64,000 nt of DNA from an uncultured bacterium (GCA_964476585.1 CAYZBF010000002.1:66354-130353), one strand, 5' to 3'; shown: positions 4,602 to 62,772, counted from the stretch's first letter. The notes: generated by a model not told the origin, from the letters alone. A program made the numbers and translations.

Positions 4602-5466
4602 TTATCACCACCTCTGTTTCCAGAATAACGCCAAATTTCTTCTCCACTTCATCCCTCACACGCCGGATCAATTCAATAACATCCTCTGATGTGGCAGATG
4701 GATCGGTAAGTATGTAATTCGCATGGTCCATGGAAATCAGAGCTCCTCCAACCCTCCTTCCTTTAAGTCCTGCCTGTTCTATCAGATTACCAGCATGTCC
4801 TCCTTCTGGATTCTTAAAAACCGAACCGCAGGTTCCAATATGACTCGGTATCTTTGGTAGCCTACTCCTTCTCTTTTTAGAAATCTCCTCCATTCTGTTC
4901 TCAATTTCCTTTCTATTTCCTTTCTCTAACAAGAGATTTACATCAAGCACAATCTCTCTTTTAAGGGTGGAGTACCTATATCCAAATTGGAATTCCTCCA
5001 AATGTGATATTTCACTTCCGCGTAGGACAGAAATAGAAGAAACAAACTCTCCAATTTCTGTTCCATAGGCACCTGCATTCATAACGACTGCACCTCCAAT
5101 AGTTCCAGGAACACCAGTTAACGATTCAAACCCTGAAAGACAGGCATCTTTGCAACACTTAATAATCTCTAACAGAGAAGCACCGGCCTCTGCCCGAATC
5201 ATATCCTCTTCAAGTAAGATTCTATTCATCCTCTTTGTTGTCATAACAAGGCCTTTGAATCCTTCATCTAAAAAGAGGACATTTGAGCCATTACCTATTA
5301 TATAGTACGGAATTCCCTTTCCCTCACAGAACTCTATAGACTTTCTCATATCATCCATACTGGCAACGTACAAGAAATAACGAGCTTCTCCACCTACACG
5401 GAGATATGTATGGCTGGATAGGGGCTCTTTTCTCTTTAACTCACCTTTTATTTCTAATCCCTTCAA
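4573..5466 (-). CDS. murB: UDP-N-acetylenolpyruvoylglucosamine reductase MurB
   Basis: FAD-binding MurB family features (GGEARYF, GNGSN) and dcw context. Confidence 0.85.
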   Translation of the reverse strand: MKGLEIKGELKRKEPLSSHTYLRVGGEARYFLYVASMDDMRKSIEFCEGKGIPYYIIGNGSNVLFLDEGFKGLVMTTKRMNRILLEEDMIRAEAGASLLEIIKCCKDACLSGFESLTGVPGTIGGAVVMNAGAYGTEIGEFVSSISVLRGSEISHLEEFQFGYRYSTLKREIVLDVNLLLEKGNRKEIENRMEEISKKRRSRLPKIPSHIGTCGSVFKNPEGGHAGNLIEQAGLKGRRVGGALISMDHANYILTDPSATSEDVIELIRRVRDEVEKKFGVILETEVVIIGKEEETQI

Positions 5467-8853: not shown

Positions 8854-10138
8854 AGATATCCCTTACTGCTCTCTTAAAATCCTCTCCCCTTTCAGCAAAA
8901 TTTTCATAAAGGTCAAAACTTGCGCCACCGGGGGAAAGCATAACCTTATTAATTCCGAAATCCTTGGTAAGCCTAACAGCATCTATTATTGAGGAAGCTA
9001 TTTTGTATCGATTAAATCCAGCGTCTTTTAAAATTCTCTCTATGGGAGCGCTGGATTCCCCAAGTAGAATAACTTGGGCTGCCCACTTCTGAATCGCCTC
9101 TATTATTGGAGCAGTATTTTCCACCTTCATCCTACCCCCCACTATCACGCAAGAGTCTGGAAATGCCTCAAGGGATTTTGCAAAAGCTATGGGATTCGTA
9201 CACATTGAGTTATTGATTATATGCAAGTTTTCGTTCTTTAAAACTGTTTCCATCCGGTGTTCCATCCCTTCAAACGAACGAATTCCCGATTGCACCTCTT
9301 CTCTGGACAGTCCCAAGACATTGCCTATAAGAGATGCAACCATTCCATCCTCAACAAATATATCTCCAGGAATGAATAGATCAGTTAAGGAAAAGACTAC
9401 TATACCCTCTTTGTCTCTTACCTCTTCCCCGATATAGTAGATATCTGCTTTTCTCCTCATTGAAAAAAATAGAATTTTAGAGTGTGTATCTATAGAAGAC
9501 AAACTCTCATCATCCATATTTAGGATGGAATAATCAGAATATGTTTGATTGGCTAAAATATTCAGCTTTGCATTCCTGTAATCCTCAAAGTTCTTATACC
9601 GGTCTAGATGATCCGGGCTTATATTTATAATCGCGGAGATTTTGGGGTGAAAATCAAGAATTCTCTCAAGTTGAAAGGAACTAACCTCTAACACTGTTAC
9701 GGTAGATTCATCACTCATCAGAACAAGTTCGCTTAATGGAACACCAGGATATATATTACCTCCCAGCAAGACCTTTTTGAACTTTTTAGATTGAGACAGA
9801 ATATGCGAAGTAAGTGCAGCCGTTGTGGTCTTTCCGTTAGTTCCTGTGATGGCAATCATCTTGCCTTTTAAGTGCCGGGAAGCAAATTCCAATTCTCCCA
9901 TAATTGGGATACCTCCTTCCCGTGCTTTTTCCAATATTGGAATGGAGAGAGGTACACCAGGAGATACAATGAGAAGATCCATTTTAAGCAACTCTTGCGA
10001 ATGATCGCCAACTTCATTTGGATAAGGGATATTTGAAAGAAATTCATTCTTCTCACTAATAAAAGGAGTTTCACCTAACCTATCTATTAGTCCGGCAACT
10101 GCCTTCCCACTTCTACCATATCCAATAACTCCTATCAT
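8843..10138 (-). CDS. murD: UDP-N-acetylmuramoylalanine--D-glutamate ligase MurD
   Basis: Mur ligase family protein (GTNGKTTT), between mraY and ftsW. Confidence 0.9.
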   Translation of the reverse strand: MIGVIGYGRSGKAVAGLIDRLGETPFISEKNEFLSNIPYPNEVGDHSQELLKMDLLIVSPGVPLSIPILEKAREGGIPIMGELEFASRHLKGKMIAITGTNGKTTTAALTSHILSQSKKFKKVLLGGNIYPGVPLSELVLMSDESTVTVLEVSSFQLERILDFHPKISAIINISPDHLDRYKNFEDYRNAKLNILANQTYSDYSILNMDDESLSSIDTHSKILFFSMRRKADIYYIGEEVRDKEGIVVFSLTDLFIPGDIFVEDGMVASLIGNVLGLSREEVQSGIRSFEGMEHRMETVLKNENLHIINNSMCTNPIAFAKSLEAFPDSCVIVGGRMKVENTAPIIEAIQKWAAQVILLGESSAPIERILKDAGFNRYKIASSIIDAVRLTKDFGINKVMLSPGGASFDLYENFAERGEDFKRAVRDIYGK

Positions 10139-11225: not shown

Positions 11226-12559
11226 ACATCCTCCGCTAAGACCGAAACCATTGTTTCAAGATGAAGAAGGTGAGAAGATTTAAACAATATTATATCACCT
11301 TCTCTTAGGATAGATTTCAACTCCTTTAAGGCTTCACCCTTATTCCTAACAAGTATACCATTTCCAAACCCCTCTATGAAGCCATTCGCCTCTTCTCCTA
11401 TAACAATCAATTCATCAATTTTACCTCGAATCCGTTCTCCAGATTCACGATGGAGTTCAAAGCTCTTGCTCCCTAGCTCTAACATAGGACCAAGAACTGC
11501 TACCTTTCTCCCAGGCATCCACTCAACAACCGAAACACTATTTAAAAGTGAATCGGGATTACTGTTATATGTATCATCTACGATTGTTATACTGCCTTTC
11601 CTCTTTATTTCCAATCTGTGAGGAATAGGTTTCACAGATGCTAATCCCATTCGGATGACATGGAATGGAATCCCATAATGGATAGCAACAGCAGTTGCAA
11701 TAGTTGCACTCCTTAAAGCACCCATACCTGGTAGATGAATGTAGAATTCTTCCTTCGCTACACCAAACATACTTCCATCAATAGACTCCTGTAGTATCCT
11801 AAATGAATAGTCGTTATCTTTATTGAATCCTACGCTAATCAACTCATTGTATTCGATTGAAGATAATAAATCATCATCGCCATTGATAAATAGTGGACCT
11901 TTTAACCCTGAAATAATGCTCTTTTTTTCTTCCAGCACACCTTGCCTGTCTTTGAACGCTTCAAGATGAGAACGACCAACACCGGTTATAAGAGCAAGGT
12001 CTGGTTTCACTATCTCGGTTAGTTTCTTTATTTCACCTCTCTCATTAGTTGCCAATTCAAGTATTGCAAATTTTTCATCCTTCAATCGGAATATGTTGAG
12101 CGGAACACCAACACGATTATTGTAATTCTTGAATGAAACAAGAGTGGGCTCTACTGAACGAAATATCGGCCCCAGAAATTCTTTGGTGGTGGTCTTCCCA
12201 ACAGAACCGGTAATCGCGATTACCAATGGATTCACAGTTTCCCGGTAATAACAGGCAAGAGCACCCAGAGCTTCTAAGGAGTCCCGGACTAGGATAAGAT
12301 TCTCATCTCTCGCTTTTTTCTCTGATACGATAGGAAGGCCGGATTTTTCGATTGCTTCATCTGAAAAATCATGGCCGTCAAAATTCTCACCCTTAAGCGC
12401 AAAGAACAATTCACCTTTCTTTATAGTTCTTGAATCCACACTGACACCGGTTATCACCTTCTTATCCAACCGATTCCCACCTATAGCCTTACCCTTTATT
12501 GCCTCGATTACCGTCTTAATCTCTAATGCTCTCATCTCTCGAAATACTCCTTCACACAT
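11201..12559 (-). CDS. murF: UDP-MurNAc-tripeptide--D-alanyl-D-alanine ligase MurF
   Basis: Mur ligase family protein (ITGSVGKTTTKE), in dcw order. Confidence 0.85.
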   Translation of the reverse strand: MCEGVFREMRALEIKTVIEAIKGKAIGGNRLDKKVITGVSVDSRTIKKGELFFALKGENFDGHDFSDEAIEKSGLPIVSEKKARDENLILVRDSLEALGALACYYRETVNPLVIAITGSVGKTTTKEFLGPIFRSVEPTLVSFKNYNNRVGVPLNIFRLKDEKFAILELATNERGEIKKLTEIVKPDLALITGVGRSHLEAFKDRQGVLEEKKSIISGLKGPLFINGDDDLLSSIEYNELISVGFNKDNDYSFRILQESIDGSMFGVAKEEFYIHLPGMGALRSATIATAVAIHYGIPFHVIRMGLASVKPIPHRLEIKRKGSITIVDDTYNSNPDSLLNSVSVVEWMPGRKVAVLGPMLELGSKSFELHRESGERIRGKIDELIVIGEEANGFIEGFGNGILVRNKGEALKELKSILREGDIILFKSSHLLHLETMVSVLAEDVCSISYTL

Positions 12560-17182: not shown

Positions 17183-17940
17183 TTATCAACCCCCTGATAA
17201 TGGCTGGCTAACAATATATCCTCCACTTCTCCCCACTTATCCCCACAATTTTAGAGCAAAAATACAGTTTTGTCAAGGGGTAAAGTGATTTTTTTCTCTT
17301 TTAAAGGACAAAAAAGTTAAGAAGAAATCGAGAATCGTCCCACTTCATTAAAAAAAATATATTTAAAAATATAGGTTCATTCGATTTATAGCTGGATTTT
17401 AAACCTACTGATTCTTTACCAGTGCATTTAATAAACAAAACATATTTTATATCTTTGTTATGAATTAAGTATCGACAACGATTTTCGATACTTCAAATAA
17501 CTTGTAATCCTACAAATAAGAAGTAAGTACAAAGCGTGAGCCAGTTCTCTAACGTCTAATCAAAAACGTCTACAGTCAGAGCATTTTTAAGGACGTTCTA
17601 CTTGGCGTATTTCAAGGCATAGTTAAACATTACAACCATTTCCCCATTCATTTCTTCTCTATTTTAGGTATTTGAAAATATCCTCACGCAAGCACTTGAC
17701 TTTTCTTATATTTACTTTAAATTCAAGTTGATGTTAGGCCGTGTAAAAAAGAGTGTTAAAAGGGTTTAGCAGAGGAATAAGTTATTTGGAAATAGGTGCA
17801 TACCATCTGGATTTAGCAATTATCACGAAATATCGGATATAAAAAGCAATGCGCCAAAAAATGTTAAATTGTTTGATTTCCGACTGTATTCGGTTCCAAG
17901 CTGAAGGACAGTATGGAGATTACACAAGGAGGTTAGAGTA

Positions 17941-18222
17941 ATGACAAAGGAAATCTACGTTGGGAACTTACCCTTTAGTGCATCAGAAGAAGATATTTCT
18001 AAACTGTTTTCACAGCATGGAACCGTACATTCAGTAAAGTTGGTCACTGATCGTGATACCGGAAGGCCTCGTGGTTTTGGTTTTGTGGAGATGGATCAGG
18101 ACGAAGCCGATGCAGCCATTCAGGCGCTTAACGGTACTGAACTTGATGGGCGCAGTTTACGCATTAATGAGGCCAGAAAACGCGATTCTCGTAATTCTCG
18201 TCCTCAACGACGCAGGTATTAA
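17941..18222 (+). CDS. RRM-domain RNA-binding protein (bacterial Rbp-like)
   Basis: RNP2 (IYVGNL) and RNP1 (RGFGFVEM) motifs. Visibly GC-richer than its neighbours; long 5' leader. Confidence 0.85.
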   Translation: MTKEIYVGNLPFSASEEDISKLFSQHGTVHSVKLVTDRDTGRPRGFGFVEMDQDEADAAIQALNGTELDGRSLRINEARKRDSRNSRPQRRRY

Positions 18223-18322
18223 GATAAATGCTAAATATCGAAGCGCCATAAAGATCATAGCTCTTTTAGAGTCTGATTAGGATTCCTTCTATACCCTCGT
18301 ACTTGATTAAAAATGGCAAATA

Positions 18323-18514
18323 ACCTGGGTTATATGCTGGGAGGTTCACGCCTCCCAGCATTAGGGTCATTGGTTGCGCGCCAAAAGTCAAGAGTCAGGG
18401 TTTAACAGCAGTTTATAGCCTTTAGAGAAGCGATCCGGTGGTTCGCTGGGCCTTCTGTCTCCGGTTTACGGTTATACTATGGTTCAACATTCACGGACGC
18501 CATAAATCCCAGGG
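18323..18514. ncRNA. candidate structured RNA of unknown class (~190 nt, GC-rich, 13-bp closing helix)
   Basis: CCTGGGTTATATG (18323) pairs with CATAAATCCCAGG (18502), 11 of 13 positions. There is an internal perfect hairpin CTGGGAGG-ttcacg-CCTCCCAG (18337-18358). No ORF, and local GC is clearly above flanks. Confidence 0.3.
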
Positions 18515-18540
18515 AATATTAGCCGAATAGAATATGTTTT

Positions 18541-19464
18541 TTAACCGACGGAGTCAACCATCTTTCTTATAGCTCTGATGTGCTTTGGTGTTGTTCCACA
18601 GCAACCTCCAATGATTGACACACCTAAAGAAACTAATTCTTTTGCTTTTTCTGCCATAAACTCTGGTGTCTCGGGATAAACAACAGTATTTCCTTTTATC
18701 TCTGGAATACCTGCGTTAGATTGAATGATAATTGGAAGATGGCTAAATTCCCTGAATTCCCTGGCTATCTTTATCATGTTATCTATACCGTTTCCACAGT
18801 TCGAACCTATGATATCGGCTCCTGCATTTGTAAGTCCTTTTACAGCTTCTTCTATATTTATACCCATCACAGTATAAAAACCTCTGGGGATGGGATCAAA
18901 TGTCATTGTTGCAATAACAGGGGTTGACGACGAAACAGTTTTCGCCGCTTTAACGGCAATTGTTGCCTCTCTCAAATCGGTCATTGTCTCTACGCATATA
19001 ATGTCAACGTCTGCACTGATGAGTGCCTTCATCTGTCTTTCAAAACTATCGTACATTTCGGAATCTGATGTATCCCCATAAGGCTCCAGGAGTTTTCCAC
19101 TTGGGCCGCAGGAACCAGAGATATAAGCGCATTCTCCTACGATTTTTCTTACAGCAAGGACAGCATTTCTGTTTATTTCCTCTGTTTTATCCGCAAGCGA
19201 ATAAAACGAAAGCTTCAAGGGAGACGCTCCAAAGGTATTGGTCTGAACTATATCAGCCCCTGCCTCAAGATAAAGACTGGCAATCTCATGAAGGATCGGG
19301 AGACGTGTAAGGTTAAAAGATTCCGGAGGTTCCCCTGCCCCAAGACCACGTTCCATAAGCATTGTTCCCATTGCTCCATCAGAAACAAGTATCTCGCCAT
19401 TCTTCAATCGCTTGAGAAGTCCTTCCACCCTACCTCCCATTTTTAAAAGTAACCGCAGATACAC
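18541..19464 (-). CDS. homocysteine-binding (MetH N-terminal-like, PF02574) methyltransferase module with intact Zn-site cysteines
   Basis: ILVSDGAMGTM, EAGADIVQTNTF, SNCGNG and IIGGCCGTTPKHI align with the MetH Hcy domain, including the three Zn-ligand Cys. The ATG at 19440 is the probable start. Confidence 0.8.
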   Translation of the reverse strand: MYLRLLLKMGGRVEGLLKRLKNGEILVSDGAMGTMLMERGLGAGEPPESFNLTRLPILHEIASLYLEAGADIVQTNTFGASPLKLSFYSLADKTEEINRNAVLAVRKIVGECAYISGSCGPSGKLLEPYGDTSDSEMYDSFERQMKALISADVDIICVETMTDLREATIAVKAAKTVSSSTPVIATMTFDPIPRGFYTVMGINIEEAVKGLTNAGADIIGSNCGNGIDNMIKIAREFREFSHLPIIIQSNAGIPEIKGNTVVYPETPEFMAEKAKELVSLGVSIIGGCCGTTPKHIRAIRKMVDSVG

Positions 19465-19536
19465 ACAGATGTTCGCAAATACAATTACTTCTAAAATTCA
19501 TTTAATCTGTGTCTATTTGTGTTCATCTGCGGTTAC
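19450..19536. repeat. palindromic intergenic element (TAACCGCAGAT ... ATCTGCGGTTA) between corrinoid-protein and Hcy-module genes; carries dispersed motif TGTGTTCATCTGCGG
   Basis: 10-bp perfect arms 19451-19460 and 19526-19535; the 14-mer is shared with 44949. Confidence 0.6.
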
Positions 19537-23242: not shown

Positions 23243-23276
23243 TGGAAAAGTCATGCTTTTCCCCCAATATTTTTTC
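23243..23276 (+). terminator. putative intrinsic terminator after tetR (GGAAAAG-tcatg-CTTTTCC + T-run)
   Basis: 7-bp stem and T-rich tail, seen directly. It overlaps the start of a dispersed-repeat copy. Confidence 0.35.
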
Positions 23277-23340
23277 TCTGTGCTCTCTGCCTACCCCGTA
23301 GGGAGGAACCGACCGTATCGAGGTATCTCTGTGGCAAAAA
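23275..23340. repeat. dispersed element copy (CTCTGTGCTCTCTGCCTACCCCGTAGGGAGGAACCGACCGTATCGAGGTATCTCTGTGGCAAAAAG)
   Basis: The 27-bp core is identical (reverse-complemented) to 59809-59838. The 3' part resembles the reverse complement of 44701-44722. Confidence 0.65.
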
Positions 23341-23772: not shown

Positions 23773-24745
23773 GATTTTCTGTATTCCCTTAATTATTGCT
23801 CTCCTTTTATCCCCAATAGCCTTTTCCAAATTAAAGAACGAAGAAATAGCTGTAAAGATTGAAAAGGGGAAGAATGTCAATGAGATTGCTTCACTCTTAG
23901 CTCAAGGGCGAATAATTGAGGATAGATACGGATTTCGAATATTGTGTACCCTTAGCGGGAAAGCAAATAAGCTCTCCTACGGGTGGTACAAACTGAGAAC
24001 TTACCAGGAGCCTCGTTCCGTTCTAACTATTCTATCAAAGGGTCAAAGAATGACTGTCTGTGTAACTATACCAGAGGGATTAACTGTGGAGCAGACGATA
24101 AATCTTTTAGCATTGAAGACTGATATCGACGTAGAAGGCCTGGATTCTTTATCCCATGATGCGGAATTTATACACAGTTTAGGAATAAATGTTAACTCCC
24201 TGGAGGGTTTTCTCTTTCCTGATACATATATCTTTTATAGAAGTGAAGACCCGGGGAAGGTTATAAAAAATATGGTTTTTAACCTATTTTCCATATTAAA
24301 ACCCGCTTCCAGAATCAGTGATTCCAGAATTGTGATTCATTCAATGGAATTTAACCCATATGAGATACTAACGATAGCATCCCTTGTTGAGAAGGAAGCA
24401 ATGGTGGATAGAGAAAAACCAATTATAGCTTCTGTCATCTATAACAGATTAAAGAAAAGAATTAGACTTCAAATCGATGCAACAGTGCTTTATGCTTTAG
24501 GATATCATAAGCCGCGCGTTTATTACAAAGATCTCAAAATAGACTCACCGTATAACACGTATAAAAACAAGGGTCTTCCTCCAGGACCAATCGCCAATCC
24601 CGGATACCAAGCAATAATTGCTGCAATGCATCCAGCAAAAACTGATTATCTTTATTATGTGGCCACTGGTAAAGGAGACCACATCTTTACAAAAACCCTT
24701 AGTGAACACAATAGGGCAAAATTTGAGGTAAAGAGAAACCAGTAG
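23759..24745 (+). CDS. mltG: endolytic murein transglycosylase MltG (YceG family)
   Basis: N-terminal TM anchor and a YceG-like domain; classic ruvX-mltG pairing. Confidence 0.8.
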   Translation: MKRIKIFCIPLIIALLLSPIAFSKLKNEEIAVKIEKGKNVNEIASLLAQGRIIEDRYGFRILCTLSGKANKLSYGWYKLRTYQEPRSVLTILSKGQRMTVCVTIPEGLTVEQTINLLALKTDIDVEGLDSLSHDAEFIHSLGINVNSLEGFLFPDTYIFYRSEDPGKVIKNMVFNLFSILKPASRISDSRIVIHSMEFNPYEILTIASLVEKEAMVDREKPIIASVIYNRLKKRIRLQIDATVLYALGYHKPRVYYKDLKIDSPYNTYKNKGLPPGPIANPGYQAIIAAMHPAKTDYLYYVATGKGDHIFTKTLSEHNRAKFEVKRNQ

Positions 24746-24850
24746 TCGCTACACCCCATTGAAAAAGTATTTGGACGCAGATTAACGCAGAAAAATGGGT
24801 TAATAGGAAAATGAGTAAATGGGTGAATGAGGTGGTCTATTTAAACAATT

Positions 24851-24888
24851 ATCGAGGATCGAGCATCTAGCATCGAGAATCCAGTATC
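24851..24888. repeat. 5.4 x 7-bp tandem repeat ATCGAGN
   Basis: ATCGAGG ATCGAGC ATCTAGC ATCGAGA ATCCAGT ATC, seen directly. Confidence 0.7.
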
Positions 24889-24959
24889 TTTCACTGAAAC
24901 CTAAAGTTGTATTTTTTATCTGTATAGATCAGTGTCTAAAATTGGGGTTGGGAATTTTG

Positions 24960-25736
24960 TTATTTCTTTAATGCTTGAATCAATCCGGAAATTGTATATT
25001 CCATAGGAACATTAATGCCATTTTCTCTAAGTTTTTTGGACACAGAAATTGCATAAGGAATATCACAACCAGCTTCAAATACCACATCCCAATCCACTTC
25101 CCTCGGTGGGCAAGAGCACACAATCTTACCATCAACGATTAGAGTAAGTTGGTCTACGCATTCAATAATATCATTCGAGTGATGAGCAATCAATATGACC
25201 CCAACCTCACCCTTTAGTGATTCAATAATAGTTACCATCCTTTTCCTCGTCTCCCAGTCAAGCCCGCTAAAAGGTTCGTCAAGGATTATCCATGATGGTT
25301 CCCAAACTAGTATTGAAGCAAGGGCCACTAATCTCTTTTCACCCTCAGAAAGAGTAAAAGGGGATCCCGAAAGGATCTCATCTCTCAACCCAACCAATTC
25401 AACTACACGCGAAACTTGTTCATCTATGCGTTCCAAATGGTGTTTCCTGGCACCATAAGCAATCTCTTCATAAACACTCTCCTTAAAGAAAAGATCTTCC
25501 GGAAACTGAAAGAGAAATCCCATCTCCTTACGAACACCTTGAATTTTTCCCCTGGGAAATACTACCCTCCCACTTCGAGGCTTCATTAGATGTGCAATTA
25601 GGAGAGCAAGAGTAGTCTTACCTGCAGCAGTGGGACCTACGATAAGATGAACTTCACCGGATTCAAATCTAAGAGAACAATTCTTTAATACTAAGGAATC
25701 GCCATATCCAAAGCTTACATTCTTTAAGAGTACCAT
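24960..25736 (-). CDS. ABC ATPase, ECF-transporter EcfA-type
   Basis: Walker A (GPTAAGKTT), ABC signature, EcfA-like Q-loop region. Confidence 0.75.
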   Translation of the reverse strand: MVLLKNVSFGYGDSLVLKNCSLRFESGEVHLIVGPTAAGKTTLALLIAHLMKPRSGRVVFPRGKIQGVRKEMGFLFQFPEDLFFKESVYEEIAYGARKHHLERIDEQVSRVVELVGLRDEILSGSPFTLSEGEKRLVALASILVWEPSWIILDEPFSGLDWETRKRMVTIIESLKGEVGVILIAHHSNDIIECVDQLTLIVDGKIVCSCPPREVDWDVVFEAGCDIPYAISVSKKLRENGINVPMEYTISGLIQALKK

Positions 25737-31264: not shown

Positions 31265-31614
31265 TGGTGGAGGCGGCGGGAATCGAACCCGCGTCCGAAA
31301 TGGCTGTTTGAAAGCGTCTACATGCTTAGTGGTTGTTTTTCTCTCGCCTTCCCAACACCCAACCACAGGACTAAGAAAGGCTATGCCAGTAATTTTTCAT
31401 CCACAATCCCCTGGCAATGATTGCAGACTATTCTCCTTCTATGACACCCTACAAGAGAGTAGGAGAAGAACTCTCTCGCGGACGGGCAGCTAAATTAAGC
31501 TGCCAGAGCGTAATTAACGTTGCCGTTTATATTTATGACCACAGTTTTTCGAGTTATGGCAGCTCGGCATGCAACTTTCAATCCAATTCACTCCGTCGAG
31601 ACCTTTTCGCCCCC
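31265..31614 (-). ncRNA. ssrA: tmRNA (ssrA)
   Basis: The minus strand begins GGGGGCGAAAAGGTCTCGACGG and ends GGTTCGATTCCCGCCGCCTCCACCA, a tRNA-Ala-like T-arm and acceptor. The internal tag reading frame is ...GGC AAC GTT AAT TAC GCT CTG GCA GCT TAA (GNVNYALAA*). Confidence 0.9.
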
Positions 31615-31657
31615 GCTCCTTTTAATATTTTAATGCTTTATATTGAATAGTCAAGGG

Positions 31658-31771
31658 GGAGACAATAGTCTTCAGTCTTTAGTCATAAGTCCTAAGTTAT
31701 TTTTTCTAAAACTTACAATAAATTTTTAAATTTGACTACTGACTATCGACTATAGACTGAAGACTATCTCC
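31658..31771. repeat. long imperfect palindrome (GGAGACAATAGTCTTCAGTCT ... AGACTGAAGACTATCTCC) built from inverted arrays of 7-bp GACTNNN units
   Basis: Arms at 31658-31678 and 31754-31771. Heptads AGTCTTC AGTCTTT AGTCATA AGTCCTA on the left; GACTACT GACTATC GACTATA GACTGAA GACTATC on the right. Confidence 0.75.
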
Positions 31772-31877
31772 TGCATTTATGCAGGAAATAAGGGGTTGAC
31801 AAACCCTACTTAGATATAAATGATATAGAAAATCTAATATCTCAAAGTTAAAATTAAATGCTTAATGAGGAGGTAGT

Positions 31878-33512
31878 ATGGGAAATTCTTTATACAAAAT
31901 AGATAAACCGTCAAATGAACCTATTTATCCTTATGGCCCCGGAAGTTTAGAGAAAAAGGAATTAAGAGAAAAAATAAAAGAACTTAAAGGTAAAGAGCTC
32001 GAGATTCCACTTATTATAGGTGGTGAAGAGATAATGACAGGAGATATTGGAGAATGTGTTATACCACATGAAAACGATAAGATTCTGGGCAAGTATCACA
32101 AGGCTGGAAAGGATGAAGTGGAGATGGCAATAAATGCAGCACTAAAAGCAAGGAAAAAGTGGTCAGAGACACCATGGGAACATCGTGCTTCTATCTTTAA
32201 GAGAGCAGCGGAACTACTGTCCGGGCCTTGGAGAAGCACCTTGAATGCAGCCTGCATGCTATGTCAGAGTAAGACGGTTTTTCAGGCCGAAATTGATTCT
32301 GCATGCGAACTAATAGATTTCTTCCGCTTTAATTCCTACTATATGACAGAGATTTACACCGAGCAGCCAAACTCACCAGGAGCAGTTTATAATAGATTGG
32401 AACATAGACCCCTTGAAGGATTTGTATTCGCTGTAACGCCATTCAACTTTGCTTCAATAGCAGGGAATCTTCCCACTTCACCCATTCTTATGGGTAATGT
32501 AACTGTCTGGAAACCAGCGTCTTCTGCAGTATATACGGCTTATTGGATAATGAAGTTATTACAGGAAGCAGGTGTTCCTGATGGAGTAATAAATTTTGTC
32601 CCTGGATCAGGTGGACAGGTTGGGCAACCTGCTCTCACCAATCTAAACCTTGCCGGTATCCATTTCACCGGTTCAACTGCAACATTCCAGTATATGTGGA
32701 AAACAATTGGGGAAAACATCATGAACTATAAGACCTATCCAAGAATCGTAGGAGAAACTGGTGGTAAAAACTTTATCTTCGTTCACGAAAGCGCTAACAT
32801 GAAAGAAGTGCTTACCGCACTTATAAGAGGAGCCTTTGAATATCAGGGACAGAAATGTTCTGCAGCTTCGCGTGCTTATATTCCTCTCACCATGTGGAAG
32901 AGTGGATTAAAAGAGGAACTTATCCAAACAACTGAAGAACTAAAAATGGGGTCTCCTGAGGATTTTAGAAACTTCCTGACTGCAGTAATAGATAAGGCTG
33001 CATTCAATTCAATAGTGAAATATATCGACGATGCAAAAGAATCTTCTGATGCTCTGGTAATTACCGGTGGAGAATATGACGATTCAAAAGGATACTTTAT
33101 AAAACCAACAATAATCCTGACGACAAACCCAAGTTATAAATCAATGAAAGAAGAGATCTTTGGTCCAGTCCTCACCATCTATGTCTACAAAGACGATGAA
33201 TATGAAGAAACGTTAGAAATCTGTGATAAGACCTCTCCCTACGCCCTAACTGGTTCTATATTCGCAAAAAACCGCAATGCAATTATAAAGGCTGAAAAAC
33301 TCCTCACACATGCTGCCGGTAACTTTTATATAAACGATAAACCTACAGGAGCAGTAGTGGGACAGCAACCATTTGGAGGGAGCCGGGCATCAGGGACAAA
33401 TGATAAAGCAGGAAGTAAGTTGAACCTCCTTAGATGGGTCACTCCAAGAACAATAAAAGAAAACTTAGCTCCTCCAACTGACTACCGTTATCTATTTATG
33501 CAGGATAAGTAA
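31878..33512 (+). CDS. aldehyde dehydrogenase family protein, delta-1-pyrroline-5-carboxylate dehydrogenase-like (~540-aa form)
   Basis: ALDH catalytic region (FEYQGQKCSA, ETGGKN) and overall similarity to the Thermus/Bacillus-type P5CDH. Confidence 0.75.
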   Translation: MGNSLYKIDKPSNEPIYPYGPGSLEKKELREKIKELKGKELEIPLIIGGEEIMTGDIGECVIPHENDKILGKYHKAGKDEVEMAINAALKARKKWSETPWEHRASIFKRAAELLSGPWRSTLNAACMLCQSKTVFQAEIDSACELIDFFRFNSYYMTEIYTEQPNSPGAVYNRLEHRPLEGFVFAVTPFNFASIAGNLPTSPILMGNVTVWKPASSAVYTAYWIMKLLQEAGVPDGVINFVPGSGGQVGQPALTNLNLAGIHFTGSTATFQYMWKTIGENIMNYKTYPRIVGETGGKNFIFVHESANMKEVLTALIRGAFEYQGQKCSAASRAYIPLTMWKSGLKEELIQTTEELKMGSPEDFRNFLTAVIDKAAFNSIVKYIDDAKESSDALVITGGEYDDSKGYFIKPTIILTTNPSYKSMKEEIFGPVLTIYVYKDDEYEETLEICDKTSPYALTGSIFAKNRNAIIKAEKLLTHAAGNFYINDKPTGAVVGQQPFGGSRASGTNDKAGSKLNLLRWVTPRTIKENLAPPTDYRYLFMQDK

Positions 33513-36341: not shown

Positions 36342-36369
36342 GACATTCGACTACTGACTAATGACTCAT
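36342..36369. repeat. 7-bp tandem repeat array GACATTC GACTACT GACTAAT GACTCAT
   Basis: Seen directly; shares GACTACTGACTA with the array at 31734. Confidence 0.65.
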
Positions 36370-36657
36370 TATTGCTCATCCACTCATTTACCCATCTCCC
36401 ACCTTGACTTATTAAATTTTTTAATAGGGTTTTATGAATGAGAAGATGAAAAATGATTTACAAAAACTATGCGATTCAGAAAAAGGAGGAGGTTTTGATG
36501 AATTATTTAGAAAAGTTTATCCCTTCAATTTCTGTTCTTTTGGTACCTTTGGAATGCGCCAGGGGAAATGCATCATGGGATAATACATAAGGTGTGTAGC
36601 TATCAAAAATACTATCACAGATGGATAGAGTACCCCCAGCGACCTGTATGCAATAAA

Positions 36658-44655: not shown

Positions 44656-44707
44656 ATTAAAAAATAGGGGCCTTGTGCCCTTTTCGCAAGGTGTCTCTTT
44701 TTTATTG

Positions 44708-44962
44708 CCACAGAGACACGGAGGGTAGAGAGAAGAAATTTTTTAAGCCGCGATCCCTGCACGGTTCAATATAAATATTTATTAATTAAAGGGTTCAAGC
44801 GTATATATGACCGGAGACAGAGGTTGGGTTTTAGGTATGGAGTCCTAGGTCTTTGGGTTTAGAAGGTTGTGAAATAGGCGGATTTAGTGTGGAGAACTAA
44901 GACCTAAAATCTAACACCTTCCAGAGTGTCTTTGTGGTGAATTTTATCTGTGTTCATCTGCG
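44708..44962. repeat. dispersed element copy with termini CCACAGAGACAC ... GTGTCTTTGTGG, plus TCTGTGTTCATCTGCG tail
   Basis: Termini are inverted repeats with 1 mismatch. The 16-mer GTGTCTTTGTGGTGAA also occurs at 60085, and TGTGTTCATCTGCG also at 19518. The interior holds phased 7-bp units (TTTTAGG TATGGAG TCCTAGG TCTTTGG). Confidence 0.6.
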
Positions 44963-45651: not shown

Positions 45652-45744
45652 TATTAGTCCTTTTCAGGATTCTTTTCTGTGGTTTTAGAGTCTGTCCTTC
45701 ATCCGCTTGGAGAGAAACCATAAAAATATTAACCACTAACCCCA

Positions 45745-45813
45745 AAATCCTAAATCCCAATCCCTAAATTTCGCATTCTACTAATGACTATAGACCTCAG
45801 ACTTCGGACTACA
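45745..45813. repeat. 7-bp phased repeats (AAATCCT AAATCCC AATCCCT ... GACTATA GACCTCA GACTTCG GACTACA)
   Basis: Seen directly. Confidence 0.6.
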
Positions 45814-49615: not shown

Positions 49616-50859
49616 ATAGCAGCTCCTAACGTGGCTAACCTCGTTTCTATACTCTCATAACCTCTATCTATGTGATAAATCCTTGATATCTCTGTCGTCC
49701 CCTCTGCAGCAAGTCCAGCAATTAACAGTGCAGCAGAAGCACGAAGATCCGATGCCATAACCTGAGCTCCGCTTAGACATGGGACACCTTTGATAATTAC
49801 ATAGTCAACCTCACGCTTGAGATTTGCTCCCATCCTAACTAATTCTGGAACATGCATGAAGCGTTCTTCGAAGATTGAGTCCTTGACAACCGAAACACCA
49901 TTTGATAAGGAAAGGAGGCTGGTAAATTGGGCCTGCATATCAGTAGGAAAACCTGGATATGGTGCTGTTTCAATATCTATGGGCATTATATCTCCATCCA
50001 TTCTAACTCCAACACAGTCTTCTTCCAATGAAATAGTAGCCCCAATTTCCTTTAACTTGGAGAGAATCGATCCAATATAATTGCAGCTAACATCTCTAAG
50101 ATATATGTCTCCTCCGGTTATAGTAGCTGCTACAGCAAATGTTCCAGCCTCGATTCGATCAGGGATTACCCTGTATTTGCATCCCGAGAGTTTCTTGACT
50201 CCCCTGATCTCAATCTTACGAGTGCCTTCACCCTGAATATCGGCTCCACACCTCTTCAGAAAGTTTACAACATCTACAACCTCTGGCTCCATGGCTGCAC
50301 CTTCAATCATTGTAACCCCATCGGCTTTTACTGCTGCCATCATTGTATTGATGGTTGCACCAACTGAAGGACCGTTTGGTCCAAGAAGTAGGATCTTAGA
50401 ACCTTTCAATCTTTCCCCGTAGCCTTCAATATATCCATGAACCACTGAGATATCCGCCCCAAGTGCTTTAAGGCCTTTTATATGGAGATCAATGGGTCTG
50501 GGGCCAATAGCACACCCTCCAGGTAAAGAAACCCTTGTTCTACCCAACCTTGAAAGAAGAGGACCCAGGACGTAATAACTCGCCCTCATTTGTTTAACCA
50601 AATTATAAGGGGCCTCAAATCCAACCGCTCCTCTCGTATCAATATAAATGGTATCATCTTCTAGAGAGATAGAAACTCCAAGGGTTTCCAATACCCTCTT
50701 CATGGTAAAAATATCCCTGACCCTTGGGATATTTTCTATAATAAATTCATCCTCTGCTAAAAGAGTAGCAGCAAGAATAGGAAGCGTAGAATTCTTAGCA
50801 CCTTTAACACTAACGTCCCCAACTAATCTCTTCCCGCCTTCAATGACAAACTTATCCAT
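49597..50859 (-). CDS. murA: UDP-N-acetylglucosamine 1-carboxyvinyltransferase MurA
   Basis: EPSP-synthase fold with the MurA active-site Cys region (PGGCAIGPRPID). Confidence 0.9.
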   Translation of the reverse strand: MDKFVIEGGKRLVGDVSVKGAKNSTLPILAATLLAEDEFIIENIPRVRDIFTMKRVLETLGVSISLEDDTIYIDTRGAVGFEAPYNLVKQMRASYYVLGPLLSRLGRTRVSLPGGCAIGPRPIDLHIKGLKALGADISVVHGYIEGYGERLKGSKILLLGPNGPSVGATINTMMAAVKADGVTMIEGAAMEPEVVDVVNFLKRCGADIQGEGTRKIEIRGVKKLSGCKYRVIPDRIEAGTFAVAATITGGDIYLRDVSCNYIGSILSKLKEIGATISLEEDCVGVRMDGDIMPIDIETAPYPGFPTDMQAQFTSLLSLSNGVSVVKDSIFEERFMHVPELVRMGANLKREVDYVIIKGVPCLSGAQVMASDLRASAALLIAGLAAEGTTEISRIYHIDRGYESIETRLATLGAAIWRLKE

Positions 50860-52570
50860 TTCTTTTAATTACTTTTAGAAGAGCATTGAGATCCAGGGTA
50901 TTTATTATTGCATCGGCTGGTATCCATGCCCTTCTGGCAATACCAACTCCAAGTACCATCCAATCAAACATCCGTAGATCATGAGCATCGGTATTTATAC
51001 AAAGTTTAATTCCTTTTTTATAAGCTTTTCTTGCATTATGTAAATTGAGATCTAATCTATCATAGTAAGAGTTTATTTCAAGGACCTTCCCTTCTGTACT
51101 GGCCTTCTCCATTACCCTTTCCAGGTTAACATCATACCCTTTTCTACCTGATATGAGACGCCCTGTTGGGTGAGCCAGGATTGTAAGATAGGGATTCTCC
51201 AGAGCTTTTTCCATCCTCTCTGTGACTTTCTTTTTAAAGTTAGAATGTATCGCCCCAATCACAAAATCAAGGGTCTTTAGAACATCATCATCATAGTCAA
51301 GGCTTCCATCCGGAAGGATATCGCATTCTATTCCTTTTAATATCTTAATTTTATCAAATTCTTCATTGAGTTTATCAATCTCTTCGGACTGTCTTTTAAG
51401 TTCGTCAACCGATAATCCATTGGCATAGATTGCAGTTCTTGAATGATCCGTGATACCAAGATATAAGTATCCCAATTCAAGAGCTCTTTTAGTAAGTTCT
51501 CTAATTGTATTCTCTCCATCTGAGTATTTACTATGAGTGTGGAGATTTCCTTTTATATCATCATACCCCACCAATTGTGGAAGTTTGCCTTCCATGGCTT
51601 TTTGAATCTCTCCTCTATTTTCCCGGATTTCAGGCGGTATAAACTGCAAATTCAGGAGCTTATAAATCTCCTCCTCAGTTTCACCTGCTACTTTTGTATT
51701 ATTCTTAAAAACACCGTATTCATTAACTTTTAACCCTTGCTTTAAAGCTAAGCTGCGAATACGCACGTTGTGGTCCTTTGAACCGGTAAAATACATGAGT
51801 GCTGCCCCATATGATTCCTTTGGGATAACACGAAGATCCATCTGTATATCTAAACCTTCTATCACTACAGAGGTCTTTGTCTCACCGGATTCAAGAATTT
51901 TCTTTATCTCAGGAAATGAAGTAAACTTCTTCATCACTCTTATGTTGTCATTTGATTCAACAAGAATGTCTATATCACCTACCGTCTCCTTCATTCTCCT
52001 ATAGGAGCCTGCAGGAGCTACCCGTGAAACTGAATCAACGCTTTTCAACTTACCTACAATCTGATCCACAGTTGCCATAACCTCTCCTATCCCGAAACGT
52101 CTTTTCCTTCCCATTCTTTCTTCGTATACCTTTATATTCTCCATAGTTTTCTCTGCTGTTCTTCCTCCCAACCCTTCTAATTTCTGAAAAGAACCATCTT
52201 TTATAACCCTCTTCAGGTCATCTAAATTCTTTATCCCTAATTCTCTATGGAGAGCCATAAGTGTCTTTGGACCAAGATCCCTTATCTCAAGAAGAGCAAG
52301 AAGGGATTTTGGTATATCCCGAGTAACCTCTTCATACTTAGACATTTTCCCGGTTTCCAAATATTCCTTAATCTTTTTAGCTATCCCTTCCCCTACACCA
52401 GGTATATCTGTAAGAGACCCATTTTTATTTATCTCCTCTATGTCCTCTGAAAGGTCTTTTATTGCCCGTGCAGCCCGTTCGTATGCTCTTATCTTAAAGA
52501 AATTTTCATTTTTTAGGGCTAAAGTTTTAGCGATCTTTGAAAAAATTTCAGCAACCTCGTAGTTCTTCAT
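50852..52570 (-). CDS. polX: DNA polymerase X family protein with C-terminal PHP domain
   Basis: Pol-beta-like N-terminal HhH/palm motifs and PHP histidines (HTHSKYSDG). Confidence 0.85.
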   Translation of the reverse strand: MKNYEVAEIFSKIAKTLALKNENFFKIRAYERAARAIKDLSEDIEEINKNGSLTDIPGVGEGIAKKIKEYLETGKMSKYEEVTRDIPKSLLALLEIRDLGPKTLMALHRELGIKNLDDLKRVIKDGSFQKLEGLGGRTAEKTMENIKVYEERMGRKRRFGIGEVMATVDQIVGKLKSVDSVSRVAPAGSYRRMKETVGDIDILVESNDNIRVMKKFTSFPEIKKILESGETKTSVVIEGLDIQMDLRVIPKESYGAALMYFTGSKDHNVRIRSLALKQGLKVNEYGVFKNNTKVAGETEEEIYKLLNLQFIPPEIRENRGEIQKAMEGKLPQLVGYDDIKGNLHTHSKYSDGENTIRELTKRALELGYLYLGITDHSRTAIYANGLSVDELKRQSEEIDKLNEEFDKIKILKGIECDILPDGSLDYDDDVLKTLDFVIGAIHSNFKKKVTERMEKALENPYLTILAHPTGRLISGRKGYDVNLERVMEKASTEGKVLEINSYYDRLDLNLHNARKAYKKGIKLCINTDAHDLRMFDWMVLGVGIARRAWIPADAIINTLDLNALLKVIKRNG

Positions 52571-52687: not shown

Positions 52688-52793
52688 AAATCTACATCAG
52701 TATAGTAGAGTTAGAAAATAACCACAGAGGCATAGAGAACACAAAGTAGGCTTCAATTGTATGCTATTCTTGGCATAAGAAAGGAGGTACATT

Positions 52794-59797: not shown

Positions 59798-60098
59798 ACA
59801 CAGAGACACCCCGATACGGTCGGTTCCTCCCTACGGGGCAAGCAGAGGACACAGAGACAGAGAATACAGAGAAATATAAATGTTTAAAATTAAAAAATTC
59901 TATAAGAAGAACTTTGTGAACTCTGTGTCTTTGCGAGAGATCAAAATGATAGTAGGGTTTTTACATTTTTCATTTTACATTTTTAAATTTGCATTTTACA
60001 ATGAAGCTTAGATACTTTCTTTGTGACCTTTGCTTGCCCCGTGTAATAGAAACTATTTGGGGAATACTTATTATTACACAGGGGGTGTCTTTGTGGTG
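59798..60098. repeat. dispersed element copy (~300 bp) with termini ACACAGAGACACCCC ... GGGGTGTCTTTGTGG and a 27-bp core shared with 23293-23319
   Basis: CCCCGATACGGTCGGTTCCTCCCTACGGGG (59809-59838) is the reverse complement of the 27-mer CCCCGTAGGGAGGAACCGACCGTATCG at 23293. Termini match those at 44708/44926 with the same single mismatch. Confidence 0.65.
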
Positions 60099-61187: not shown

Positions 61188-61260
61188 ATTAAGAGTTCAA
61201 GTTAAATTATTAAATTATCAACCGCAGATAGACGTAGATTAGTCGCTTCGCTCAAATGAA

Positions 61261-61366
61261 GACTTTGGACTTCGGACATCGGACTTTTTTATACAAACTC
61301 AATAAACCCAGAACTCCGAACCCAGAACTCAGTACTCCGAACTCAGATCCCAGCACTTACTCCTTA
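61261..61366. repeat. 7-bp tandem repeat arrays (GACTTTG GACTTCG GACATCG GACTTTT; then GAACTCC GAACCCA GAACTCA GTACTCC GAACTCA GATCCCA ...)
   Basis: Seen directly. Confidence 0.7.
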
Positions 61367-61394
61367 ATCCCTGCTATTCTTTATGTTTTCTCTT

Positions 61395-62540
61395 CTAATC
61401 CTTCTTCACGAAGTGCTCTGCCATTTCCAATCTCTCTCCCACTGGTGGATGGTTGTAATATAAGAGCTTTATCCAAAGGCTTGGATATGCATTAGATAGA
61501 TTGCGATTGGCAAGCCCTGCCATCGCTCCCTGGAAAGCTTTAGGGTCATGCAATAGTCTTAGGGCTTCTATATCCGCTTCTCTTTCGTATCGCCTTCCAA
61601 TCCAGTTTTGTATTATATTTAAAACGACTAAGTCAATTAATCCAAGGTAGAATAACAACATAGGGAGCAACGTCAGGTTTTCTCTGAATCCTGTAAGGAA
61701 TCCAGGGAATAAAACGGATATTATTTTATGTAGTAGAAAAAAGGCAACTATCTGAAGTAGGGTTCCTGTAGTAATATACTTCACCATATGCCTCTTCCTG
61801 TAGTGTCCTATCTCGTGAGCAAGAACCGCTTTTATCTCATCCCTTTCCATCTGCTTGATTATGTTGTCAGTAAGTATTACCCTTTTTGTAGTACCCATAC
61901 CAGCGAGCATTGCATTCTCTTTTGTGGTCTTTCTGCTCGTATCCTCTTTATAGAATCCTTCAATATTAATACCTGCTTTCTCTAAAACATCTGATAGACT
62001 ACTTTTTAGTTCTTCATTTTCGATTCTGTCGTAATGATGGAAGATTGGCATGATAAGCACAGGATATATAGTTGAAAGTATTACTGAAAAAAGGGCAATA
62101 AAACCACCTGCAATCAACCACCACAAGTTTGGAAACCTTTGAAAGAGTATTAATAAAACACCAAATACTATAATCCCAAAGATTAAGGATATCAGGAATC
62201 CTTTTATATGATCGTGGAACCACTGCCTTCTGGACTGTTTAGAAAAACCATATTTATGTTCATGGGAAAATCCGGAGAGATAAGAAATAGGTAGATTGAC
62301 GATATCCTGCAAGAGAGAATAGATAATCATAAAGATAATGAATACCCATATAAAAGAAGATAATATATTCCAGTTTGCGATAATAGATGATAAGCCGCTG
62401 AAATAAAAGCATAACTGAACTATTGCAGTCAACAGTAGCCCCCAGAAACCAAGAATTCTTTTTTCCCGCTCATAGATTTTTGCTTTCCCCTGCCTATCTT
62501 TATCTAATAGTGGATGTATTTTTTCTATTACCTTCTCCAT
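61395..62540 (-). CDS. M48 family zinc metallopeptidase (HtpX/Ste24-like)
   Basis: HEIGH motif and multiple N-terminal TM helices. Confidence 0.8.
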   Translation of the reverse strand: MEKVIEKIHPLLDKDRQGKAKIYEREKRILGFWGLLLTAIVQLCFYFSGLSSIIANWNILSSFIWVFIIFMIIYSLLQDIVNLPISYLSGFSHEHKYGFSKQSRRQWFHDHIKGFLISLIFGIIVFGVLLILFQRFPNLWWLIAGGFIALFSVILSTIYPVLIMPIFHHYDRIENEELKSSLSDVLEKAGINIEGFYKEDTSRKTTKENAMLAGMGTTKRVILTDNIIKQMERDEIKAVLAHEIGHYRKRHMVKYITTGTLLQIVAFFLLHKIISVLFPGFLTGFRENLTLLPMLLFYLGLIDLVVLNIIQNWIGRRYEREADIEALRLLHDPKAFQGAMAGLANRNLSNAYPSLWIKLLYYNHPPVGERLEMAEHFVKKD

Positions 62541-62641
62541 ACAGTATAAAATAACAATATTTGTAAAATTTCAAGGCCTCAAGCGTTTTAATATATTTTC
62601 TTATATTCTTAATTCTAAATGATCAGCTAAAAATTAACTCG

Positions 62642-62750: not shown

Positions 62751-62772
62751 TCCGTCTCCGGTCCTATATCCG

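Follow-up and report, generated by a model that had tools for sequence, protein, structure and literature searches.

Among the long simple repeats of many prokaryotes, heptanucleotides come first in abundance, and polymerase slippage has been proposed as their cause, according to the accounts of Mrazek et al. 2007 that are given in PMC4679880 and PMC4692102. Several families of such repeats have been described: the TAACTGA direct repeats, located in the intergenic regions of marine Beggiatoaceae, some Cyanobacteria and Bacteroidetes, show 7-nt indels between close strains, and both cold-shock proteins (one per heptamer) and translational control have been proposed for them (PMC4679880); the GGGAATC/GGGANTN repeats of Xanthomonas and the GGGGAYT repeats of Nostoc combine conserved with free positions, occur in inverted pairs and vary between close species, and the same source accepts heterogeneous arrays as heptanucleotide repeats and mentions [quoted passage not shown] (PMC4692102). 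In Nostoc, the deletion of a GAC(C/T)AAT x8 array upstream of recO altered the response of the promoter to NtcA and LexA in reporter assays (bioRxiv 10.1101/2022.06.06.494920), while in Geobacter metallireducens dozens of paired, opposite-strand sites with 3-5 tandem 7-9-nt units at variable spacing have been guessed to be sites of IHF/HU or of a global regulator (PMC2700814).

Here, we have analysed a 64-kb stretch of DNA from an uncultured bacterium, which we refer to as the window, where a first-pass annotation had pointed to 7-bp units at several intergenic loci and had proposed that they form a distinct class of short phased repeats, different from plain AT-rich spacer DNA. This proposal stands, as the repeats recur across loci with a common vocabulary. 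The arrays belong to a known class, that of the prokaryotic heptanucleotide tandem repeats (STRR / LSSR type), and are not a new kind of element: their 7-nt units are arranged head to tail above chance, they are located in non-coding DNA at many loci, and their copy number differs in multiples of 7 nt.

The comparison with the STRR and the other Nostoc/Anabaena heptamers reveals tandem 7-nt units, intergenic location and several families per genome in both cases, as well as GACT-containing units; GACTAAT also occurs, the AATCCC-type units are similar to GGGGATT, and GACTGGG is the complement of the classic STRR unit CCCCAGT. The STRR, however, are long, near-perfect and cyanobacterial, whereas those of the window have only 4-8 units each, with three degenerate positions per unit. 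The omega repressor of plasmid pSM19035 is a ribbon-helix-helix protein that coats contiguous 7-bp heptads, and its operators may be compared with the present arrays as a functional analogy only: in both, contiguous 7-bp heptads with a conserved core, direct and inverted, are located beside promoters, but the core is another one, no ribbon-helix-helix partner has been found in the window, and the arrays reported here are chromosomal, with many unit types.

Period 7 is the leading period both among the long simple sequence repeats (LSSR) of many prokaryotes (Mrazek) and among the listed multi-phylum loci that we introduce below, although SSR surveys count near-perfect repeats, whereas the GACT-family units of the window are ~60-70% identical to each other. 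The GGGAATC/GGGANTN and GGGGAYT repeats (PMC4692102) are likewise intergenic, perfect or heterogeneous, found in some inverted pairs and variable at the same locus between close species; they are G-rich and quadruplex-capable, which GACTWNN cannot be, and they come from another host lineage. The TAACTGA repeats (PMC4679880) share the intergenic location, copy numbers of 2-6, a patchy distribution across phyla and 7-nt indels, with mixed heptamers in some Bacteroidetes, but the unit is different, and the Beggiatoaceae arrays are in forward orientation just upstream of start codons, where most of the present arrays are not. In the Geobacter metallireducens sites (PMC2700814), too, 7-8-nt units follow one another in tandem, four to five at a time, and the two members of a pair are on opposite strands at a variable distance; these sites are present in many copies per genome and absent from the sister species. 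Their consensus units are different (GTTGCTYN, TCTCCGTS, MTYCTGA), and some of them are located at a fixed distance from IS elements, which is not seen here. No mention of such repeats in WOR-3, the group of the present host, has been found in the titles and abstracts of the WOR-3 papers that a literature search retrieved.

The assignment of the host to the WOR-3 / "Stahlbacteria" group is based on a dehydrogenase of the window: in its protein cluster at 90% identity, the members that have names carry the labels "candidate division WOR-3 bacterium" and "Candidatus Stahlbacteria bacterium". Six other proteins of the window are singletons at this identity level. As to gene content, the window is an ordinary piece of chromosome, with an mraZ-to-ftsZ cell-wall/division cluster, uvrB, a family-X DNA polymerase and metabolic genes, and with no transposase among its genes. 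Genes have been called from long ORFs and the remainder, ~7 kb (~11% of the window), has been treated as intergenic; with ~8 kb from relatives, the intergenic sample for the lineage amounts to ~15 kb in total. The relatives with syntenic contigs form two lineages, L003-L005 and L006-L009, and the DNA identity of the window to either of them is ~78-83%, while the genes of L003 and L006 are 96.5-98.5% identical. Two other assemblies of the same organism (L001 and L002) are 100% identical to the window and, because of this, uninformative on population variation; one metagenome scan, with the M48 peptidase as the query, has returned two relatives only.

A local scan for period 7, which required 21 pairs at lag 7 to reach an identity of 70% or more, has returned 10 segments in the window, all 10 of them intergenic and spread over 8 of the 24 spacers (first row of the table), versus 0-4 segments for each of the other periods within 4-12, of which 0-1 are intergenic. 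Chance and low complexity are ruled out by shuffles: when the intergenic DNA was shuffled 200 times with its dinucleotides preserved, the mean number of period-7 segments was 0.2 (sd 0.43, maximum 2). Base identity in the intergenic DNA is 0.311 at lag 7, 0.302 at lag 14 and 0.304 at lag 21, versus ~0.274 in dinucleotide shuffles, with autocorrelation z values of 6.9, 4.9 and 5.5, respectively, and of 4.3 at lag 8. The lag-7 signal is absent from the coding DNA of the window, which shows a period of 3 only, and lag 7 is again the peak in the pooled intergenic DNA of the relatives (~8 kb). The genome-wide occurrence that the first-pass annotation had suggested has been assessed on these two samples.

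Phased 7-bp units are present at or near all of the positions where that annotation had placed them; the locus at 44836-44916 is weakly periodic, with the stretch 44892-44920 passing the scan and the remainder falling below it. A TTTTACA array at 59955-60000 had not been listed there, and some period-8 arrays also occur (24793-24829, 27698-31). The k-mers that had been described as common to several loci are real: at k=12, 49 k-mers are common to different spacers, versus 9.8±4.1 in shuffles (about five times as many), and GACTACTGACTA is found at both 31734 and 36349.

Table. Features of the window that carry or adjoin the repeat arrays (coordinates from the first nucleotide of the window).
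Feature	Coordinates	Strand	Remarks
Period-7 segments of the local scan	24844-24890, 31663-31701, 31730-31768, 36342-36376, 44892-44920, 45728-45760, 59955-59993, 61255-61289, 61304-61354, 62635-62669		
yceG 3' end, 8-mer array and ATCGAGN array	24707-24902	+	99% identical to L007/L009; absent from L003
Period-8 array (AAATGGGT-type, 24793-24829), then period-7 ATCGAGN x6 (24851-24892)	24793-24892	+	Array at 24851 between convergent genes
ssrA promoter-like site TTGACT-16-TAAAAT	31627-31654	-	Delimits the variable segment on the left; also conserved in L003 and L006
Left arm of the inverted pair	31664-31698	-	Minus-strand reading AACTTAG GACTTAT GACTAAA GACTGAA GACTATT
AT-rich inter-arm spacer	31699-31733	.	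23-35 nt depending on arm boundaries (~28); ~140 nt in L003
Right arm of the inverted pair	31734-31768	+	GACTACT GACTATC GACTATA GACTGAA GACTATC
Small hairpin TCCTGCAtttaTGCAGGA	31769-31786	+	Follows the right arm, ahead of the ALDH -35 box; also in L003
ALDH-citrate lyase operon promoter-like site TTGACA-17-AATGAT	31796-31824	+	Right boundary of the variable segment
GACT-family array GACATTC GACTACT GACTAAT GACTCAT	36342-36369	+	TTGACT box 35 nt downstream, ahead of a truncated gene remnant
Element bounded by inverted CCACAGAGACAC / GTGTCTTTGTGG motifs	44708-44937	-	Weak heptad arrays at ~44836-44920 (minus strand)
AAATCCN / AATCCCT-type array	45728-45765	+	Unit type also in L003, L006, L007 and other phyla
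GACT-family array GACTATA GACCTCA GACTTCG GACTACA	45786-45813	+	Faces gene 3' ends
Second element with the same inverted CCACAGAGACAC/GTGTCTTTGTGG pair	59798-60096	+	Contains the TTTTACA x6 array, 59955-60000
GACT-family array GACTTTG GACTTCG GACATCG GACTTTT	61261-61288	+	Between convergent genes
GAACYCN array, ~7 units, 14-/21-nt higher-order periods, and non-repeat tail	61304-61400	+	Truncated copy of the 62635-62745 module
Full module upstream of the OsmC-like gene	62635-62790	+	GAACYCN array, AAAYTCC/AAATCC units, tail, GTCTCCGGTC, 9 nt, TTGACA

The inverted pair is located between the 5' end of the tmRNA gene (ssrA; 31265-31614, minus strand) and an aldehyde dehydrogenase (ALDH)-citrate lyase operon that starts at 31878, and has the layout (NNNAGTC)x5, AT-rich spacer, (GACTNNN)x5, followed by the small hairpin. 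The imperfect palindrome that had been recognised here is confirmed, with arms of 40 nt each (31665-31704 and 31728-31767) that are 75% complementary and separated by 23 nt; the folding energy of the single-stranded DNA is -22.7 kcal/mol, versus -7.3±2.3 kcal/mol in shuffles (z = -6.8). The left arm stops 9 nt upstream of the -35 box of ssrA and, since promoter-like sites are located on both flanks, the palindrome lies wholly between two divergent -35 boxes; the GACT strand of each arm is directed toward its own gene, i.e. ssrA or ALDH.

At least six unrelated unit types occur side by side in the 64 kb. The coexisting families are GACTNNN, GAACYCN, AAATCCN, ATCGAGN, TTTTACA and GTCTCCG, together with a few 8-mers. 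In the GACT family (22 units from 5 arrays), the residues GAC are found at positions 1-3 in 65 of 66 cases and T is found at position 4 in 19 of the 22 units, while positions 5-7 are near-random, with an information content of 0.07-0.44 bits. Departures from the majority of a unit's own array are seen in 4 of 88 core positions versus 25 of 66 variable positions (Fisher p=1.5e-7); pure slippage with subsequent neutral decay would be expected to produce equal decay at all seven positions and a random vocabulary at each locus, and this is contradicted by the core bias. The near-identity of units that defines a strict simple sequence repeat is not found in the GACT family, while the ATCGAGN and GAACYCN arrays are closer to perfect.

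The arrays behave as modular, dispersed repeat elements do, which goes beyond slippage in place. The M48 peptidase gene is flanked by the segments 61290-61420 and 62620-62770, which are 79% identical over ~125 nt that include both the array and the non-repeat tail. The block order GAACYCN array, AAATCCN array, GTCTCCGGTC, ~10-16 nt and TTGAC(A/T) is seen upstream of the OsmC-like gene and, in a looser form, upstream of uvrB, where the 44708-44937 element also holds GTCTCCGGTC (44810-44818) and a TTGAAC -35-like box; the order (GAACYCN)n-(AAATCCN)n-GTCTCCGGTC-TTGAC is found again in L003 and L006, at a site that is not orthologous. The multiple alignment of the modules is gappy and backs the common block order qualitatively only. 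The CCACAGAGACAC/GTGTCTTTGTGG motif has 14 matches versus 2.7 expected; as to terminal inverted repeats, the arms of the array pair are inverted and CCACAGAGACAC/GTGTCTTTGTGG pairs bound two elements, but defined termini could not be set. The motif GTCTCCGGT is not enriched in the window (6 matches versus 6.1 expected, with one mismatch allowed); it is unusual in its placement only, as all five of its good matches are intergenic, the motif having been picked after the data were seen.

The comparison of the relatives reveals that the replacement of array-bearing spacers far outpaces the divergence of genes. Three spacers have been replaced outright between L003 and L006: the ssrA-ALDH spacer, the distal arrays downstream of CitF and the uvrB-yggS spacer. 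The ssrA-ALDH spacer has a length of 222 nt in L003 versus 37 nt in L006; in L006-L009 there are no arrays between the two genes, where an unrelated sequence of 37 nt (by BLAST breakpoints) is located between the same two promoter regions, and the promoter-like sites of both ssrA and ALDH are kept in L006 despite the absence of arrays between them. Downstream of CitF, the promoter-proximal 100 nt are 98% identical between L003 and L006, the 8-mer arrays that lie upstream of it differ, and the distal arrays are (GAACTCG)5 in L003 versus (GAACTTG)4 in L006, all units of the latter having T in place of C. The length of the yggS-uvrB spacer varies from 312 nt in the window to 168 nt in L006 and 31 nt in L003, where a GTCTCCG array makes up the spacer. 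The unit vocabulary is common within a genome and different between lineages: the more distant relative L130 carries 8-mers, and L131 carries GTGATAT and its inverse, plus 9-mers.

The arrays differ by whole units, and their units can become homogenised. Copy-number variation among relatives, for which the first-pass annotation had proposed a check, is present, as the left arm in L003 has exactly one additional 7-nt unit, GACTAAT, and the arrays downstream of CitF have 5 units in L003 versus 4 in L006, with all units changed. Five units make up the right arm in the window as well as in L003, with differences at 0 of 20 core and 4 of 15 variable positions (p=0.026). Between two 99.8%-identical strains, two substitutions are seen in the right array and the hairpin, and the number of units is unchanged, which indicates that the arrays are not very unstable. 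The interpretation given in the first-pass annotation is upheld in part: changes in 7-nt steps do occur between relatives, but the tracts are not hypermutable. A strain-level SNP in L004 restores the stem of the TCCTGCAtttaTGCAGGA hairpin. At least one array-bearing segment has moved recently between species: a sliding-window scan finds the 196 nt at 24707-24902 to be 99% identical to L007/L009, versus 75-86% in the flanks and a background of 79%.

Phase-variation tracts, in which a perfect repeat within a reading frame or between the -35 and -10 boxes switches a gene through its unit number, are ruled out for these arrays, which are located upstream of -35 boxes or between convergent genes, have degenerate units and are stable in length at 99.8% identity. 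Known structured RNAs are also ruled out, as Rfam gives, at the gathering score, only the tmRNA and a tRNA-Phe in the window; in the region 24650-24990 it returns nothing at E<=1, and in the region 31615-31880 only far sub-threshold plant miRNA hairpin models.

A scan for five GACT cores spaced at 7 nt, in which each species was represented by one genome, has returned at least 120 loci, which, among the matches listed, come from Cyanobacteria, Bacteroidota, Acidobacteriota, Verrucomicrobiota, Planctomycetota, Gemmatimonadota, Actinomycetota, Firmicutes and others; GACT-core arrays are also found on at least 120 viral contigs. Both pure arrays and arrays with free NNN positions are present among the listed loci, e.g. 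ten all-different units in a Pedobacter; 111 of the 147 arrays of these loci are located outside long ORFs, period 7 accounts for 302 segments versus 46 for period 8, and the units AAAATCC and AAATCCC recur. A polarity of the GACT arrays toward gene starts has not been found across phyla in the listed loci (27 versus 37) and, if anything, the arrays lean toward gene 3' ends. In inverted pairs among the matches listed that are at most 150 nt apart, the AGTC-then-GACT order, which is that of the window, occurs 25 times versus 5 times for the opposite order, with double counts removed (p=3e-4). These AGTC…GACT pairs come from WOR-3, Acidobacteriota, Bacteroidota, Cyanobacteria, Actinomycetota, Firmicutes and viral contigs, and the arms of the pairs in other phyla often differ at NNN, with the core kept.

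Neither slippage nor hairpin stability explains the retention of the core, the differences between arms and the bias in the order. Because the core is kept while NNN drifts, the arms differ at NNN and the order is 25 to 5, GACTNNN might be taken as a cross-phylum recognition array with the outward-facing form 5'-(NNNAGTC)n-spacer-(GACTNNN)n-3', which a putative protein or a small mobile-element machinery would read; we put this forward tentatively, as an idea with a minor share of the probability.

The joint reading toward which we lean, with moderate confidence, is that the arrays are made and resized by slippage or unequal exchange, within modular elements that are recombined or moved, and that they are largely dispensable. 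Short arrays of 4-8 imperfect 7-bp units (and a few of 8-9 bp) would arise and be remodelled in non-coding DNA through replication slippage, which we infer as the generating process, or through unequal exchange; they would be embedded in small, modular, partly palindromic intergenic repeat elements, and these elements would be copied, swapped or replaced between intergenic sites, even of related species, much faster than point mutation acts, by recombination or by a putative mobility process. Most of the arrays are probably tolerated, self-propagating spacer DNA and not dedicated regulatory sites; their dispensability is suggested by the promoters of ssrA and ALDH, which exist with or without arrays. 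Some observations weigh against this joint reading, among them the unchanged unit number of the 99.8%-identical strains. The GAC(T) core, kept at a 7-bp spacing, and the preferred polarity of the pairs imply that something sequence-specific acts, i.e. a heptad-reading protein or a moving machinery; and near-identical dispersed copies, target-site duplications and a transposase have not been found in the 64 kb, which counts against the step in which elements would be moved around. Heptad-reading proteins and miniature transposons stay alive as rivals because core conservation, genome-specific vocabularies and pair polarity are not explained by slippage.

If the arrays were operator-like, as the first-pass annotation had already considered possible, each heptad would be the putative site of one subunit of an omega-like ribbon-helix-helix protein or of a nucleoid protein, and the coated arrays would tune the adjacent promoters. 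This reading, which we consider doubtful, would account for a conserved 3-4-bp core at a fixed 7-bp spacing with free flanks, for the position of the arrays directly upstream of the -35 boxes of ssrA, ALDH and the gene remnant at 36404, with GACT toward the gene in each case, for the pair arms in other phyla that keep the core and differ at NNN, and for the strong bias in pair polarity; it is also in line with the effect of the GAC(C/T)AAT x8 deletion in Nostoc (bioRxiv 10.1101/2022.06.06.494920) and with the paired heptamers/octamers of Geobacter that have been proposed as global-regulator sites (PMC2700814). It is, however, hard to reconcile with at least six unrelated unit types within 64 kb, with the same promoters occurring without arrays in a 97%-identical relative, with arrays that are located between convergent genes (24851, 61261) or face gene 3' ends (45786) and with the lack of polarity toward gene starts across phyla (27 versus 37), and no candidate binding protein has been found among the window proteins that were scanned. 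The fixed polarity of the inverted arms relative to an interior of varying length (25 versus 5; ~28 versus ~140 nt) would also suit miniature transposable elements, in which the inverted arrays or the CCACAGAGACAC/GTGTCTTTGTGG pairs would be the subterminal sites of a transposase encoded elsewhere, the unit inserting and excising as a whole. Presence and absence between 97%-identical genomes, the motif pairs that bound 44708-44937 and 59798-60096 with arrays inside each, the 196-nt segment that is 99% identical across a background of 79%, and the same arrays being common on viral contigs all point in this direction, but there is no clean empty site, L006 having 37 nt of unrelated sequence instead, target-site duplications are not recognised, the copies within the window are only 79-82% identical, many arrays are unpaired, and no transposase is encoded in the window; we rate the transposable elements as improbable, a little below the operators.

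An action at the RNA level, in which the arrays would form terminating or stabilising hairpins in transcripts, or would offer tandem 7-nt sites to a single-strand binder (e.g. a cold-shock protein) with an effect on translation, is the reading to which we give the least credit and which we consider very improbable. The 31-nt yggS-uvrB spacer of L003, entirely (GTCTCCG)n and abutting the start codon, the pair that abuts a start codon in a Pelatocladus locus (L115), the lean of the arrays toward gene 3' ends across phyla and the cold-shock proteins and translational control proposed for TAACTGA (PMC4679880) would be consistent with it. The two best arrays of the window, however, are located upstream of both -35 boxes, outside the predicted transcripts, both orientations relative to genes occur, there is no Rfam match, and the folding of the spacer at 24746-24959 does not surpass that of shuffles for either of its strands.

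No new type of system is revealed by these arrays, and the cross-phylum polarity of the GACT pairs is the part that is most worth following. Heptamer repeats are among the commonest long repeats of bacteria, and the present case extends the class to the uncultured phylum WOR-3, with unusually clear comparative evidence: array-bearing spacers have been replaced between 97%-identical genomes, while the flanking promoter-like sites have stayed. If the conservation of the core and the polarity do not reflect a reader protein or a mobility machine, the lesson would be one for annotation and assembly, i.e. that, given the speed at which they evolve, such spacers should not be treated as conserved regulatory regions; if they do, the arrays would offer a handle on a widespread, unexplained component of intergenic DNA.

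In the inverted pairs of GACT-core heptad arrays, the two arms show a preferred polarity: among the matches listed from other phyla and viral contigs (L010-L129 and L132 onward), the order (NNNAGTC)n…(GACTNNN)n occurs 25 times, versus 5 occurrences of the opposite order (p=3e-4). The variable positions are often unlike between the two arms of the pairs among these matches, and hairpin stability, considered as a cause of the preferred order, does not account for it. The more distant relative L131 has its own array vocabulary (5153-5318, 9700-9830 and 11244-11284), i.e. (GTGATAT)n paired with (ATATCAC)n in the opposite orientation, together with the 9-nt units CGTCTATAG and GTTCGTAGG; the pSM19035 omega repressor binds a heptad that TATCACA resembles.

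CCACAGAGACAC, taken together with its inverse GTGTCTTTGTGG, is an intergenic motif dispersed in the window, with 14 matches against 2.7 expected; its inverted pairs and further sites are listed in the table below, and the segment at 59799-59874 has an inverted copy at 23258-23333 (82% identity). The motif (G/A)TCTCCGGT occurs five times in the window (18457, 37330, 40671, 44810 and 62754), which is no excess over chance, only its placement being unusual: all five sites are intergenic. At two of the five, a TTGAC-like box lies 9-10 nt downstream, and these two sites are located inside a block of about 32 nt (AACYTCYGTCTCCGGTCMTATATMCG) that is about 80% identical between them.

Coordinates of individual features in the window
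Feature	Position	Remark
Segment 99% identical to L007/L009	24707-24902	last codons of yceG and spacer bearing an 8-mer array and a 7-mer array
tmRNA gene	31265-31614	short predicted tag GNVNYALAA
Hairpin GTGTCTCT…AGAGACAC, then terminator-like stem with T-run	44656-44707	directly upstream of uvrB start codon
CCACAGAGACAC/GTGTCTTTGTGG inverted pair	44708-44719 / 44926-44937	bounds 230-nt element
CCACAGAGACAC/GTGTCTTTGTGG inverted pair	59798-59809 / 60085-60096	bounds 299-nt element
Further CCACAGAGACAC/GTGTCTTTGTGG sites	23323-23334; 52722-52733	
Family-X DNA polymerase with PHP domain	50852-52570	

The hairpin and stem that precede uvrB may constitute a leader or attenuator of this gene; in the syntenic contig L006, a comparable stem-plus-TTTCGCAAGGTGTCT layout is located upstream of uvrB, with a different stem sequence, while the whole leader is missing from L003, a syntenic contig of the other related lineage. 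Two minus-strand genes are separated by a long, imperfect hairpin at 19449-19536, whose 42-nt arms are 71% complementary and enclose a 4-nt loop; it is composed of words resembling CGCAGAT/CACAGAT, and such words recur at 24775, 44955 and 61225. The region of about 1.36 kb upstream of mraZ (17183-18540) contains a single short ORF, and its Rfam search gave no match at the gathering score. At 36498-36590 lies a gene remnant with a stop after 30 codons, the L003 counterpart of which has 242 residues and a lipoprotein-like start (MNYSKKFF…), as far as can be judged from its sequence.

At the beginning of the aldehyde dehydrogenase gene, about 220 nt of coding sequence (31905-32128) have at least 97% identity in all the relatives (L003, L004, L006, L007 and L009), versus about 83% for the remainder of the operon; the protein belongs to a 90%-identity cluster with 23 members, and the other window proteins checked at this identity are singletons or have one further member each.

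The 196-nt segment that includes the end of yceG is 99% identical to its counterparts in L007 and L009, versus 75-86% in the flanking genes, and within the same genome pairs the tmRNA gene is less well conserved than this segment; in the comparison with relatives, the segment is missing from L003. It looks like a small segment that was recently exchanged between species.
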